Origin: Candidatus Bathyarchaeia archaeon
GTDB taxonomy: Archaea > Thermoproteota > Bathyarchaeia > 40CM-2-53-6
Reading direction: 5' to 3'
Assembly (NCBI GenBank): GCA_035656295.1
Contig: DASRSU010000025.1
Span: 65,543-129,542, forward strand
Length of the DNA: 64,000 nucleotides
The notes beneath the pieces are model-generated. The model was not told the DNA's origin. It saw nothing but the letters and a program-made list of their open reading frames with translations, and did no database searches. The translations under genes were made by a program, and so were the position numbers. Numbering within the stretch: position 1 is the first letter of the stretch; each line of letters starts with the position of its first letter. Positions 3,499 to 64,000 of the stretch are shown here, in pieces.

Positions 3499-4209
3499 CT
3501 AGTCCTCATGTTTCGTGAGACCATCTGAAATTTTTCTCAAAACTCCAGCTAGCACGCTTGCCTCTCGTCTTCGAATCCCAGACCGACCTATGATATTGCG
3601 TAGAGTTCGGACTGCGATTCCCACTTTGTATTCTTTGACTCCTACAGAGTAGGCCGATTTGCTAAGCAATTCGAGTATCTTCTGCTTAGTCGCCTCATTT
3701 GCTAGAATCTGAGAAGGCTCAGTGTTTTTCACTTGGAATAGTTCGTAGAATACTATCGCAGCCGCGTGGAAGAGGTTTAATGTCAAATAGTCTCTTGCGG
3801 AGGGGATCGTCATTACAACATCGCAACGACCTAGCTCGCCATCATTCAGTCCTGTCCCCTCCCGACCGAAGACAAGCGCTACTTTTCCCTCAGCACTGCC
3901 CACCACGTGAGCAAGTTCTCTTGGTGTAACCGAGCACCTGAGAAGATTACTAGAAGAGAGCGACGCCCAGGCCGTTGTCCCGACTGTTATGTCGGCACCG
4001 TCCAACGCTTGAGATAGGGATCCTTGCACCGTCATCGAGTCTAGGACGTCTTGCGCATGGCCAGCTCTCATTCTTCCATTGGCTGAAAGTGTCGCTAACG
4101 GATTCACGAGGCACAGCTCGTGTAACCCGAAATTCTTCATACTTCGGGCGACAAAGCCTACCGACTCTTCGAAGACTGGTTCGACTAGAACCACGAAATA
4201 CTCAGGCAT
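3499..4209 (-). CDS. trmJ: SPOUT tRNA/rRNA methyltransferase, TrmJ/LasT family
   Basis: VVLVEP..GFVARSMKNFG, VFGREGTGL, IPSARDYLTLNLFHA motifs. Confidence 0.88.
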   Translation of the reverse strand: MPEYFVVLVEPVFEESVGFVARSMKNFGLHELCLVNPLATLSANGRMRAGHAQDVLDSMTVQGSLSQALDGADITVGTTAWASLSSSNLLRCSVTPRELAHVVGSAEGKVALVFGREGTGLNDGELGRCDVVMTIPSARDYLTLNLFHAAAIVFYELFQVKNTEPSQILANEATKQKILELLSKSAYSVGVKEYKVGIAVRTLRNIIGRSGIRRREASVLAGVLRKISDGLTKHED

Positions 4210-15393: not shown

Positions 15394-15528
15394 TGGCGGG
15401 ACCGGTGGGATTTGAACCCACGACCTTCGGGTCTCACTGCGGTCCATGGCTCCGGAGCCCGATGTCCTATCCTGGTTGTCCTCCCGCTACGGTGACCCGC
15501 ACGGTAGCGTGATCTAGACTACGGTCCC
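15394..15528 (-). tRNA. tRNA-Arg(CCG) with two introns (15476-15513 at 15/16; 15433-15451 at 37/38)
   Basis: Removing 38 and 19 nt gives a 78-nt cloverleaf: GGGACCG/CGGTCCC, A20, loop CT-CCG-GA, G73, CCA. The 38-nt intron is a long hairpin with central helix GTCT/GGAC. Confidence 0.9.
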
Positions 15529-15543
15529 GTATCAGAGGGAGAA

Positions 15544-16005
15544 TTGAACGATCGAATAAAAGCATGGACGCGAAACAGAAACTGGGCTCGCATCAAACCC
15601 AGAAAAACTGTACCTAGAATTCCCGGAATGATTTTCCAAAAGCATTCTTTTGTTTGTCTAGGACCCCCCGGGGGGCAAGTCGCGCGTCTGAGCCCATGGG
15701 AGCCCGCCGAGCTAGCACGCGATGCCGCTGCTAGCTACGTTGAAGCCTACTACATCAATTCATGTAATCAGTTGCCTGGAGGAGGGTTGCTTACTTTCGT
15801 TAACATTGCCTCGAATCCCTCAACCGGTTGGGCTCTAGGCACCTACGGAACCTCACCCAATTGCGGATATTCAACCTACACGCCGTCTCCATCGGCGGTC
15901 TACTTATGCTGGAATTGGTACAATTGCAACCCCGCTCCTCCTCCGCCGCCACCGGGTCCGTGCAGCCACCCACCATGCTGGCAAAGTCCTCGCCCAGATC
16001 CTTAG
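15544..16005 (+). CDS. Cys/Pro-rich hypothetical peptide; start uncertain, possibly a 5'-truncated secreted protein
   Basis: Downstream of repeat A the frame looks protein-like (YVEAYYINSCNQ...CWNWYNCNPAPPPPPPGPCSHPPCW). The 5' part is a read-through of repeat A. Confidence 0.45.
   Translation: MNDRIKAWTRNRNWARIKPRKTVPRIPGMIFQKHSFVCLGPPGGQVARLSPWEPAELARDAAASYVEAYYINSCNQLPGGGLLTFVNIASNPSTGWALGTYGTSPNCGYSTYTPSPSAVYLCWNWYNCNPAPPPPPPGPCSHPPCWQSPRPDP
15631..15695 (+). repeat. tRNA-adjacent repeat family, copy A (left half only)
   Basis: T/A tracts, CTAG, C/G runs, then GTCGCGCGTCTGAGCCC, a 17-mer identical to the reverse complement of 63549-63565. Confidence 0.8.
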
Positions 16006-16065
16006 GAAATATCCATTCGTTGTTCGAGCAGTAACAAAAGGGATAGAATCAATAGCATCGTTCCA

Positions 16066-16305
16066 ATGGGATTCAAGGAAATGTCAAAGGGGAGATTCTG
16101 GGCGATAATCATTGCAACGGTGATTTATCCGTTAGTCGTATTTTTGTTCGCTCCCCCAATCTATGAATGTTTCCCAGACGGGAGTGGTTGCGGATTGCGT
16201 CCTAACCTCCTCCTTCCAATACTCCCTATTCCCGAGATTCCGTTAGGATGGACTGCCATCTCCACCGGGATTTCACGGCGGAGAGGCGCAGCTTCTACAC
16301 CATAA
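16066..16305 (+). CDS. Small membrane protein with a Cys pair
   Basis: ATG start; TM FWAIIIATVIYPLVVFLFAPP; loop YECFPDGSGCG; second hydrophobic Pro-rich stretch. Confidence 0.6.
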   Translation: MGFKEMSKGRFWAIIIATVIYPLVVFLFAPPIYECFPDGSGCGLRPNLLLPILPIPEIPLGWTAISTGISRRRGAASTP

Positions 16306-16314
16306 GCCTGTCCG

Positions 16315-16446
16315 ATTTTTTCTTAAAAAATAAGGGTTCTTTTTTCTAGGGGCCCGGGGGGGTAGCCGAGTCGCGCACCTGAGCCTGTTCAGAAAACACT
16401 ACAGAACAGCCTATGTCAGGGGCTATTCATACTCTATTCCAAATAA
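16315..16446 (+). repeat. tRNA-adjacent repeat family, copy B
   Basis: Co-linear with copy D over about 130 nt; ends with TATTCATACTCTATTCCAAATA (16424-16445; 21/22 identical to D). Confidence 0.85.
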
Positions 16447-16587
16447 GAACCCGATTTGGGAGATTGGAATAGACTCGCCCGAAACGAACCCTGATGGTTG
16501 AAATAAACAGCACCTTGCTCCAGCACGCTTACCAATGCCCAACAGTCACTTTCTCCGTTTTTCACACTTTTTGCAACTGATTTCTCG

Positions 16588-16794
16588 GACGTTTCCAGAC
16601 GATTCCCTACGAGAAACACCCAAGACAACCTAACAACGTCCACCAACCGTTACAATCATAATTCCAAAGACGATTAATGTACTAGCAAAGAAATCTAGAC
16701 CCCCTAGGCAGAGAAAAATCGCGCGCGTGAGCCCGAACGAAAACAGTACGAAAACCACACGAACCAGCGTTTATTCATACTCGATTCCGAATAG
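16588..16794 (+). repeat. tRNA-adjacent repeat family, copy C (long form)
   Basis: 16588-16617 is 26/30 identical to the reverse complement of 63837-63866; core AAATCTAGACCCCCTAG...GCGCGC.TGAGCCCG..GAAAAC; terminal TATTCATACTCGATTCCGAATA (16772-16793). Confidence 0.85.
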
Positions 16795-16884
16795 AACACG
16801 AGCCAAGCCGTCTAGTCTCGCGTGTAGTCTACCCTTATCGCGACGTTAATAGGACTGATACGCGATGATACATGTCCGCGCACA

Positions 16885-17121
16885 ATGGCTTCCTCCAATC
16901 GCAGCAGGCTCTTCTGGAGCGGTATCTGGATCTACTCTATCGCAACCGGTCTCGCCAGCATGCTATTCATGGCGCTCACGTTCTACACCGAAGTAACCGG
17001 CAACGGAATACGGTTCATCGAACCAAACCGGGTCCTAGCAGCAGGAGAACTTGCAACAGTAACAACGGGAATGATGGCGCTCCTCATCCTCTTCTTCAGA
17101 AGTCTCTCACTGAAAGAATAG
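16885..17121 (+). CDS. Small two-TM membrane protein
   Basis: 78 aa; ATG start; two hydrophobic segments. Confidence 0.6.
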   Translation: MASSNRSRLFWSGIWIYSIATGLASMLFMALTFYTEVTGNGIRFIEPNRVLAAGELATVTTGMMALLILFFRSLSLKE

Positions 17122-60986: not shown

Positions 60987-61664
60987 TTGGTTCCTCAACA
61001 TTCAACTCTAGGTGGATCCGCAAAGACGAAACCACCTAAGCTCATCTCAGCAAGATCTAGAAGAGCGGGACATGTAAGGGAGAAAAAGGAGTATCCTACT
61101 CGGGAGAAAAAACGCAAGGTTTGGCTAACACAAAGCCAAGTGAGTTCGATGTTGTCAATAGCCAAACAGAACTCCGATCGAGATTACATTCTTTTGCTAT
61201 TAATGCGGTATGGTCTTCGGTGTGGAGAGATCGTTGGCTGGAGAGGGTTACCTGGAATCAAACGAGAGGATCTGAGAGAGAAGGGGATTTGGGTTAAAGG
61301 GAAAGGTTACTCGAAGGGAATAGTTCAGGACCGTCTGGTTCCAATGCCTGCCGAGCTAATGAATCGAATAAAGTCATTTGCTTCTGCAGGTCCTCCGGGC
61401 GACAGGTTGTTCACAATATCGGAGGTATGGGCTGAGAAGGTCGTGAAAAACTGTGCGAGACAGGCTGGCGTCGAGGATTGGCAGCGGGTCGGGCCGCACA
61501 GACTAAGGGCATTCTTTGCGACAGATGCGAAGGACAGGGGCCTGGATGCGTTTACGATCCGGGACCTGATGCGCCACAAGAATATTACAACGACAAATCT
61601 CTATGTTGGGCAATCGTCCCCGGACCGGTTAGCTACAGTGGTTGAGAGTCTCTCAAAGGAGTAG
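60987..61664 (+). CDS. Tyrosine recombinase/integrase, catalytic domain only
   Basis: GLRCGE (R), VKGK (K), PHRLRAFFAT (HxxR), MRHKNITTTNLY (H...Y); 225 aa with a short basic N-terminus and no core-binding domain. Confidence 0.92.
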   Translation: MVPQHSTLGGSAKTKPPKLISARSRRAGHVREKKEYPTREKKRKVWLTQSQVSSMLSIAKQNSDRDYILLLLMRYGLRCGEIVGWRGLPGIKREDLREKGIWVKGKGYSKGIVQDRLVPMPAELMNRIKSFASAGPPGDRLFTISEVWAEKVVKNCARQAGVEDWQRVGPHRLRAFFATDAKDRGLDAFTIRDLMRHKNITTTNLYVGQSSPDRLATVVESLSKE

Positions 61665-62871: not shown

Positions 62872-63471
62872 ATGTCAGAGACAAGCAATTGGCGCAACCT
62901 CCTGTCGTCGCCAACAGTCGTATTTTCCTTCTCCTTGATAGTAGTTTACGTAATTACAGGATTGCTTGTGTCAGACTTTCTTAGTCCAGTTGACACTGCA
63001 ATCAACACTTACCCGACGACAAGTGGGTCTATCGTTGTCTTGCACTTGGCTCAATGCCAGGGTCCTGGTCTTAGTCTTCCGTTTCCTTGGACGCTCGTAA
63101 CTTCCGTGTTTCTACATTCGGGCATCCTTCACATTGTCAGTAATCTATTCTTCTTAGTAATCTTCGGTTTCATTCTGGAAGAACATGTGACGAAGCGACG
63201 TTGGGTGTTGACGTTCTTGTTGACTGGATTCATGGGCAATGTAACTTTCGCGTTGGCCGGCTTGGGCGGATTGATCCCTCCCAGTTGCGGCGTCGGCGCG
63301 TCGGGTGCAGTCTATGGGATCATCGGCACAGCGCTAGGCCTCAAAGCGGCCATACTGATAATTTTCCTCGCAGGTCTCGACCTCTTTGCAGGAGGCGGAT
63401 TCTTTGCGCATTTTGGAGGCCTGATAACAGGTTTCGTGCTTCGAGAATTTTGGATTCGGAAACCGGACTAG
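62872..63471 (+). CDS. Rhomboid intramembrane serine protease
   Basis: WTLVTSVFLHSGILHIVSN, GASGAVYG (Ser), AHFGGL (His); start placed at the ATG at 62872. Confidence 0.92.
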   Translation: MSETSNWRNLLSSPTVVFSFSLIVVYVITGLLVSDFLSPVDTAINTYPTTSGSIVVLHLAQCQGPGLSLPFPWTLVTSVFLHSGILHIVSNLFFLVIFGFILEEHVTKRRWVLTFLLTGFMGNVTFALAGLGGLIPPSCGVGASGAVYGIIGTALGLKAAILIIFLAGLDLFAGGGFFAHFGGLITGFVLREFWIRKPD

Positions 63472-63488
63472 CAAGGCTTTGTCTTACT

Positions 63489-63625
63489 CTATTTGGAATC
63501 GAGTATGAATAGGCGCTGACACATACTTTTTCTGGCGGTTTTCTGAACGGGCTCAGACGCGCGACATCGCCACCCCCCCCCCCGCGGGCCCTCTAGAAAA
63601 AGAGACTTTATTTTTGTGAAAAAAA
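63489..63625 (-). repeat. tRNA-adjacent repeat family, copy D
   Basis: Reverse complement is co-linear with copy B, shares a 17-mer with A, and ends in TATTCATACTCGATTCCAAATA (63490-63511). Confidence 0.85.
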
Positions 63626-63653
63626 GTTACGTTTTTCGTCATCTTCGGGGTTT

Positions 63654-63866
63654 TATTCTGGTCGAGTGTGAACTCACGTGGCACGGTATGATCCCTACGG
63701 CCACCAGCGTGTTTTCTCTGCGGGCTCGGGGCGCGCCATTTCCATGCTAGGGGGTCCAGAATTTTCTCATTGTACGTTAAACGTCTCTGATGATGTCGAT
63801 TCAGGGTTTCCGACACGTTGCTAGGTTCTGTCAGACGTTTCTCGGAGAGAGTCGTCTTGAAACGTC
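63654..63866 (-). repeat. tRNA-adjacent repeat family, copy E (long form)
   Basis: Reverse complement is co-linear with C: GACGTTTC.AGACGA.TC.CT.CGAGAAAC, AACCTA.CAACGT, AGACG.TTAA.GTAC, GACCCCCTAG, GCGCGC..GAGCCCG, GAAAAC, and a degenerate end box GTTCACACTCGACCAGAATA. Confidence 0.8.
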
Positions 63867-63956
63867 GCAAAACACGGCTGCAGAGATTGATCTGGCTATC
63901 AGCTTGGAGGAGATTTCACGATCCGTGACCCGGTTCGATTCAGAGCGGCGTAGAGG

Positions 63957-64000
63957 TAGCCCGGGGGAGATTCGAACTCCCGTCGGCAGGTGACTCCTGC
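63957..64000 (-). tRNA. 3' half of a tRNA, probably tRNA-Gln, likely with a canonical intron (partial at window edge)
   Basis: GGGAG-TTCGAAT-CTCCC T arm, CCGGGCT-A73 (implies A1-U72, typical of archaeal tRNA-Gln). GGAG-TC|A before CCTGC fits a BHB pairing with a CT-(C/T)TG loop. Confidence 0.75.

Follow-up and report, generated by a model that had tools for sequence, protein, structure and literature searches.

Bathyarchaeia are abundant, uncultivated archaea, and the mobile or regulatory non-coding DNA that they carry is, to our knowledge, almost unexplored. Two kinds of described system come closest to the repeats reported here. Miniature transposable elements with inverted repeats (MITEs) and other non-autonomous elements, such as SM1-4 of Sulfolobus and the bacterial MITEs, are short, non-coding, multi-copy, intergenic and lineage-specific. 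Integron cassettes, including those of archaeal integrons (Ghaly et al. 2022, PMC9668308), combine a variable part with a conserved, sharp-edged 3′ site, attC. The 64,000-nt stretch of DNA analyzed in this work (Candidatus Bathyarchaeia archaeon, contig DASRSU010000025.1, positions 65,543 to 129,542; hereafter the window) harbors, in two clusters, five copies of a family of non-coding repeat units, named A to E, and a sixth copy, F, was found on a contig outside of it. The family is the product of duplicative insertion of discrete, directional, non-coding units. It works most like a MITE or an integron cassette devoid of an open reading frame (ORF), yet lacks what defines either of the two, and it is best filed among the prokaryotic dispersed non-coding insertion repeats.

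The units share with MITEs all the general features given above; in addition, a sister lineage has syntenic empty sites in their place, assemblies break at them, and some of the copies are truncated or decayed. They differ in that they possess neither conserved terminal inverted repeats nor a readable target duplication, in that no parent insertion sequence (IS) or transposase was found, and in that they are directional, with their conservation concentrated at one end. Like integron cassettes, the units consist of a variable part and a conserved, sharp-edged 3′ site, stand in same-orientation tandems, occur without an ORF, enclose cargo in one interval, and begin with a sequence that resembles the tail of the site. 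Their core, however, has no imperfect hairpin and no R''/L''-L'/R' cores, the unit boundaries read ...AATAGAAC and contain no GTTRRRY, no IntI with attI and Pc was found, and the units occupy several dispersed loci and not one array. The integron-like layout considered in the initial annotation of the window is thus not borne out, and its remark that the repeats match neither the CRISPR nor the attC layout agrees with the negative outcome of our repeat scans, fold analyses and GTTRRRY tests. Elements derived from IS200/IS605 (palindrome-associated transposable elements) and rolling-circle elements of the IS91 type resemble the units in being directional, in having no terminal inverted repeats, and in inserting beside a short specific sequence; these elements make no target duplication, and none is readable at the units. 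No subterminal hairpins were detected in the units, however, and the window, which is annotated only in part, showed neither a Y1/HUH transposase nor TnpB in their vicinity. Finally, REP/BIME, ERIC and Correia-type repeats likewise occupy the gaps that separate convergent genes and sites downstream of stop codons, and a host role in termination or mRNA stability is possible for the units as well, but these repeats are palindromic and fold, whereas the units do not.

The evidence for insertion comes from a sister lineage present in the ENA sample ERZ1758403 ('JX_forest'), whose Lon, rhomboid and GT2 proteins are 82%, ~70% and ~78% identical, respectively, to those of the window lineage. The sister lineage is syntenic at all three loci at which units were found and has units at none of them, and nhmmer searches over ~45 kb of its sequence likewise revealed no unit. 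At the first cluster, 1289 bp of the window (15529-16817) correspond to 122 bp in the sister lineage; this insert and unit C share their right edge at 16817, and the homology to the sister lineage (L110) resumes at 16818. At the second cluster, the distance between the rhomboid stop codon and the tRNA gene is ~33 nt in the sister lineage. The third locus, lying between the convergent genes GT2 and NucS, measures 31 nt in the sister lineage versus 375 nt in contig L123, which carries unit F, and the net difference of 344 nt equals the length of one long unit. Contig L123 was derived from run SRR12347814, and since another contig of that run matches the window at 100% identity, unit F very probably belongs to the same organism. 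As one and the same sequence could not have been there ancestrally at all three unlinked sites, the units are insertions in the window lineage, and the earlier view of them as inserted DNA is upheld by their absence from all three syntenic sites. For the GT2-NucS locus, the GTDB relatives considered as an outgroup for polarity are only 55-57% identical and non-syntenic; loci at 70% Lon identity have lost synteny and contain no units.

Closer relatives do carry units. They are present at the rhomboid site in L118 (rhomboid 94-95% identical) and L119 (83-84%), and at the GT2 site in L066 and L122 (GT2 84-86% identical to that of L123). Three short soil metagenome contigs (L028, L066 and L119) terminate within a unit, as is expected of a multi-copy repeat. 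The genes flanking the units are the same in all relatives, contrary to the proposal that the repeats are associated with variable gene content.

The five copies in the window had been recognized in the initial annotation, and all of them are present where it had placed them, with a similarity far beyond chance. The end box TATTCATACTCKATTCCRAATA occurs in three exact copies (starting at 16424, 16772 and, on the minus strand, 63490) versus none in 100 shuffles. The 17-mer GTCGCGCGTCTGAGCCC is identical in A and D and has versions with three mismatches in B and C, and the 30-nt block at 16588-16617 shares 26 of its 30 positions with 63837-63866. Pairwise blastn comparisons gave 77% identity over 138 nt for B and D, 69% over 185 nt for C and E, 73% over 101 nt for C and D, 73% over 86 nt for B and C, and 89% over 27 nt for A and D. 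Using nhmmer, a model built from B and D recovered C (E = 6e-9) and A (E = 1.7e-5), a model built from C and E recovered D (E = 3e-6), and a core model trained without E recovered E (E = 2e-5). The alignment of units C and F extends over 346 nt at 77% identity and breaks off at the same points in both. The sharp 3′ edge of the copies reported before was found again by us.

The order of modules within a unit is as previously described, but the units proved to be larger, the long form reaching ~344 nt, and they fall into two size classes, namely long units of ~344 nt (C, E and F) and short units of ~140-170 nt (B and D, as well as the truncated A). Long and short units have in common only a 3′ core of ~110 nt, which comprises, in this order, a C/G run with CTAG, an A-run, box 1 (TCGCGC-N4-GAGCCCG), a spacer, and the end box. 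The latter has the 26-nt consensus (C/T)TATTCATACTC(G/T)ATTCC(A/G)AATAGAAC and contains a partial dyad, CTATTC-N12-GAATAG. Although the spacer sequences are only ~50% identical, the distance between box 1 and the end box is 36 nt in seven of the eight intact cores (B, C, D, L118, L119, L028 and L122) and 37 nt in the remaining one (F). Upstream of box 1, at least two unrelated 5′ types are found: type I (A, B and D), with T-runs, CTAG and a G/C palindrome, and type II (C, E, F, L118 and L122), with GACCCCC(C)TAG...GAAAAA. The 5′ part of the short units is T-rich, whereas that of the long units is a block of ~230 nt with an inverted repeat, GACGTTTC-N17-GAAACGTC, the arms of which match at eight of eight positions in E (63834-63866), seven of eight in F (L123, ~4090-4125) and six of eight in C (cf. 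Table 1). The long units also contain two copies of AGACG(A/T)TT ~70 nt apart, and judging from their sequence, these copies and the inverted repeat could be further protein-binding sites. The first ~12 nt of the long units resemble the tail of the end box (9/12 in C, CCGAAACGAACC versus CCGAATAGAACA; 9/12 in E; 8/11 in F). Units in the same orientation follow each other in tandem, B then C in the first cluster and E then D in the second. Unit E is decayed: ~27 nt are deleted internally, box 1 has lost 1 nt, the spacer is longer and the end box is degenerate.

The boxes are under selection. Between positional counterparts, the end box is identical at 21 to 26 of 28 positions (counted over 28 nt), versus an identity of 0.43-0.66 at the four-fold sites of flanking genes (binomial P from 0.015 to 4e-8), and the spacers are approximately neutral, with an identity of 0.53-0.56 at the rhomboid site. 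The remainder of the units is rearranged around the boxes. At the rhomboid site, a type I unit in the window stands opposite a type II unit in L118, and the homology breaks at box 1. In both L122 and F, a type II 5′ part is joined to a type I-like spacer start, while unit A stops exactly past box 1 and is followed by a foreign gene fragment. The positional counterparts are thus not simple orthologs, and unit type and spacer are mosaic. The swapped 5′ parts, the hybrids L122 and F, and the cut in A past box 1 point to the boxes acting as recombination junctions, whether homologous or site-specific.

Taken as a whole, these data lead us to the tentative interpretation that the repeats are directional, non-autonomous insertion units, the two-box end of which is a protein-recognition site and is probably recombined site-specifically. 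According to this interpretation, one clade of soil Bathyarchaeia acquired the family through duplicative insertion into intergenic sequence. With their constant distance from each other, the two boxes would provide a DNA platform for a protein, a function suggested by this spacing, by the conservation of the boxes and the partial dyad, and by the finding that the core neither encodes a protein nor forms an RNA structure. The units may have been moved and reshuffled by recombination at the boxes, in a site-specific, cassette-like manner and not by transposition through terminal inverted repeats, and new units would land directly past the ends of genes or tRNAs, or beside an existing unit. Mobility of this kind is indicated by the same-orientation tandems, the direct repeats at the ends of the long units, the sharp 3′ edge, the swapped 5′ parts, and the debris between A and B.

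Several observations weigh against this interpretation. The copies are old, since the paralogs are 69-77% identical, and relatives with protein identities as low as 83% have them fixed at the same sites; among close relatives no insertion polymorphism was seen, with ~75 kb of the unit-bearing lineage examined. No transposase or integrase that correlates with the units was found, and neither were hairpins at the unit ends. A scan of the three loci gave no conserved pair of terminal inverted repeats; an 11/12 inverted pair in unit B (16334-16345 and 16441-16452) is absent in C, D, E and F. The empty sites come only from the sister lineage, whose four-fold sites are saturated (0.21-0.31 identity), so that no target duplication is readable at the junctions. 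Moreover, a host function fits the conservation of the boxes in fixed copies at least as well as mobility does. A bolder version of the same idea, which we consider quite unlikely, is that the units represent an archaeal cassette system so far undescribed, with a linear two-box site (box 1, 36 bp, dyad end box) and not a folded attC. In such a system, a hypothetical recombinase would be able to line up units as tandems, exchange the 5′ part of one for that of another, and take in foreign DNA like the gene fragment between A and B.

Table 1. Positions of the repeat units, their parts and the neighboring features in the window
Feature	Position	Strand	Description
tRNA-Arg(CCG)	15397..15532	-	Two insertions or introns, encoded CCA; neighbor of cluster 1, outside the repeat
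Unit A	15631..15696	+	5′ part of short type I: T-run, CTAG, C6G6 palindrome, box 1; cut right after GAGCCC
Secreted-protein gene, 3′ fragment fused to A	15697..16005	+	From phmmer; cargo or debris within the insert
79-aa hydrophobic ORF	16066..16305	+	From ORF list; within the insert
Unit B	16311..16451	+	Complete short type I; box 1 16370-16387; spacer 16388-16423; end box 16424-16450
Inverted partial end box TTGGAATAGA	16464..16473	+	From repeat scan; 10/10 complementary to 16433-16442
Unit C	16474..16817	+	Long type II, ~344 nt; left direct repeat 16479-16490; box 1 16718-16735; spacer 16736-16771; end box 16772-16798
Inverted repeat of unit C	16588-16620	+	GACGTTTC-N17-GAAAC
Tyrosine recombinase, 225 aa	60987..61664	+	Pfam Phage_integrase 7e-15; catalytic domain only; considered as partner enzyme
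Unit D	63466..63634	-	Short type I; end box 63485-63512; spacer 63512-63547; box 1 63548-63565; G11 63573-63583
Unit E	63650..63945	-	Decayed long type II; begins ~12 nt past the tRNA 3′ end
Intron-bearing tRNA, 3′ part	63957..64000	-	Cut by the window end; neighbor of cluster 2

The insert of the first cluster holds, besides units, the gene fragment fused to A and a small ORF. Comparison of the fragment with 1.8 billion representatives using phmmer showed that its residues 29-96 match the C-termini of proteins of 197-439 aa (E from 4e-6 to 9e-4). These form an apparently secreted, Cys-rich family without a Pfam domain, in which the motif EAYxxxSCNQLP is conserved. Pfam and NCBIfam searches with the 79-aa ORF product gave no match. 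A second GAGCCCG is found 4 nt past box 1 of unit A (15700-15706). The perfect 10-nt inverted copy of part of the end box of B, 21 nt downstream of that part, could be what is left of a unit in the opposite orientation, or else a local hairpin. The G11 homopolymer of unit D (a C tract on the plus strand) is of a kind in which length variation or assembly errors arise easily.

Among the alternatives, the one that survives best, although we regard it as rather improbable, is that the units are sibling small-RNA (sRNA) genes, each with its own promoter, whose core is transcribed forward from about the C/G run, whose boxes are pairing seeds, and which have grown in number by duplication. Bacterial mobile promoters and sibling sRNAs are homologous intergenic modules located by unrelated genes, with conserved unstructured boxes versus a divergent remainder, and with tandem paralogs. 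The units share these traits but differ by having no terminator, no predicted structure, and a fixed spacing between two boxes. An AT-rich, TATA-like stretch is found 25-32 nt upstream of the C/G run in every unit type (AAAAATAAG in B and D, GATTAAT or GTTTAAC in C, E and F, and, in L118, GTAAAATC), purifying selection maintains the boxes while the remainder drifts, and the intergenic sites by tRNAs or between convergent genes as well as the tandem pairs are reminiscent of known sibling sRNAs. Nevertheless, no forward-strand oligo-T terminator is present past the core, the fixed 36-nt spacing is unexpected for seed regions, and 10-mers antisense to the end box occur only at chance level in the window and L123. 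Both strands of the five copies and of the long unit folded no better than shuffles (z from +0.25 to +1.7; -1.7 for E, not significant), and alifold revealed no covarying helix in the cores and long units, with at most two pairs in the forward core. A search of Rfam 15 with the window and six related loci, at gathering as well as permissive thresholds, returned only tRNA matches. On the basis of the non-significant fold stability, the absent covariation and the lack of an Rfam family, a structured RNA is ruled out.

Unlikely, too, is the explanation that the units are host DNA modules, either bidirectional terminator or insulator cassettes or sites for architectural or regulatory proteins, that were spread by duplication and then retained. 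It would account for the T5-T7 runs on the forward strand in the 5′ part of every unit, and for the two or three T4-T5 runs that the conserved GAAAAC motifs create on the reverse strand of the core. Two of the three loci have their unit in a gap between convergent genes that is only 31-34 nt long in the sister lineage, and the boxes are conserved in fixed copies, the end box with a partial dyad. Yet T-runs leave the invariant 26-nt box and the second box unexplained, the first cluster does not lie between convergent genes, the orientation of the units relative to the neighboring genes varies, and the sister lineage manages without them.

The proposal made in the initial annotation, that the repeats are att sites or ends of a tRNA-targeting element, or an integron-like array served by the tyrosine recombinase at 60987-61664, is in our view very doubtful. 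In its favor, two of the three loci abut tRNA genes, the units stand in same-orientation tandems with a sharp 3′ edge, there is cargo between A and B, and the recombinase gene is located 1.8 kb from the second cluster. Both tRNA genes are real neighbors. That at 63957 is confirmed by its ortholog in L120 (6598-6738), which matches the Rfam tRNA model with 38.4 bits, is 94% identical to the window, and has an insertion of ~79 nt. The tRNA-Arg(CCG) gene was missed by ARAGORN and gave a weak Rfam match below the gathering threshold, and it is 84% identical to its ortholog in L110. Units A, B and C do lie beyond its 5′ end, as had been stated, but the tRNA itself is encoded on the opposite (minus) strand. 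However, the third locus argues against tRNA targeting, since unit F occupies the gap between GT2 and NucS, which are convergent genes, and the search of L123 for tRNAs gave none. The 26-nt 3′ segment of the tRNA occurs only once in the window with up to three mismatches allowed, and the only tRNA-like repeat in the window is the second tRNA-Arg gene. The units are thus adjacent to tRNAs at two of three loci and are not tRNA-specific, and this adjacency should not be taken as evidence for targeting by an integrase. As for the recombinase, it is kept in the same synteny in the sister lineage (L120), which is free of units, and it contains only a XerA-like catalytic domain that scores far below the cutoffs of the XerA_Arch (85.8 bits; cutoff 220) and integron-integrase (45 bits; cutoff 265) models, so that its proposed role in serving the units is not supported. 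The absence of an attC-type hairpin and of a GTTRRRY core speaks against the array version as well. From its sequence, the recombinase looks like a domesticated chromosomal gene.

The last reading, a protein-coding repeat or pseudogene fragments, can be largely dismissed: the end box does translate as YSYSIPN forward and LFGIEYE followed by a stop in reverse, its two variable positions fall at third codon positions in both frames, the 36-nt spacer equals 12 codons, and most copies have a forward frame that stays open across the core, but B and D have no in-frame start codon, the mismatches between C and F are distributed 26/26/29 over the codon phases with stops in all six frames, indels put A, B, D and E out of frame with one another, and the phase argument is statistically weightless with three variable sites only, all of which makes a coding origin highly improbable and agrees with the initial description of the family as non-coding.

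Further candidates were considered and set aside. Repeat and tandem-repeat scans showed no CRISPR-like or tandem array, and near-identical, regularly spaced repeats were not found. The origin recognition box (ORB) of archaea is a dyad TCCANNGGAAAC-type box with a G-string, adjoining orc1/cdc6; ORB, split-tRNA halves and domain V of group II introns did not fit the units in an informal comparison by eye with the consensus of each. Searches with the end-box and box 1 patterns in GTDB genomes, IMG/VR, plasmids and phages produced only chance bacterial matches, and of the 50 matches of a metagenome pattern scan, only L028 and L066 were true relatives, L048 being a chance match. The base composition of the window indicates no island.

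In the surroundings of the clusters, the order of genes around the recombinase (carbamate kinase, dCTP deaminase, HD protein, two small ORFs, recombinase, AF_0843-like, cytidylyltransferase, rhomboid) is kept across lineages. Downstream of the first cluster, 16885-17121 encodes a 78-aa two-helix membrane protein with a strongly conserved counterpart of 71 aa in the sister lineage (L110), and it is preceded by a conserved promoter-like sequence, TATCGCGAC(G/A)TTAATA.

What the analysis provides for the Bathyarchaeia is a concrete element, namely a 26-bp box that is near-invariant across lineages with near-saturated synonymous sites, at a fixed distance from a second box, within units whose insertion is clear. 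Should the boxes serve as a recombination site, they would represent a new way to build cassette-like arrays in archaea. If they are instead a host binding site or an sRNA seed, the units would be the first regulon-like non-coding family for Bathyarchaeia. Either way, the family accounts for assembly breaks and variable intergenic lengths in these metagenome-assembled genomes.

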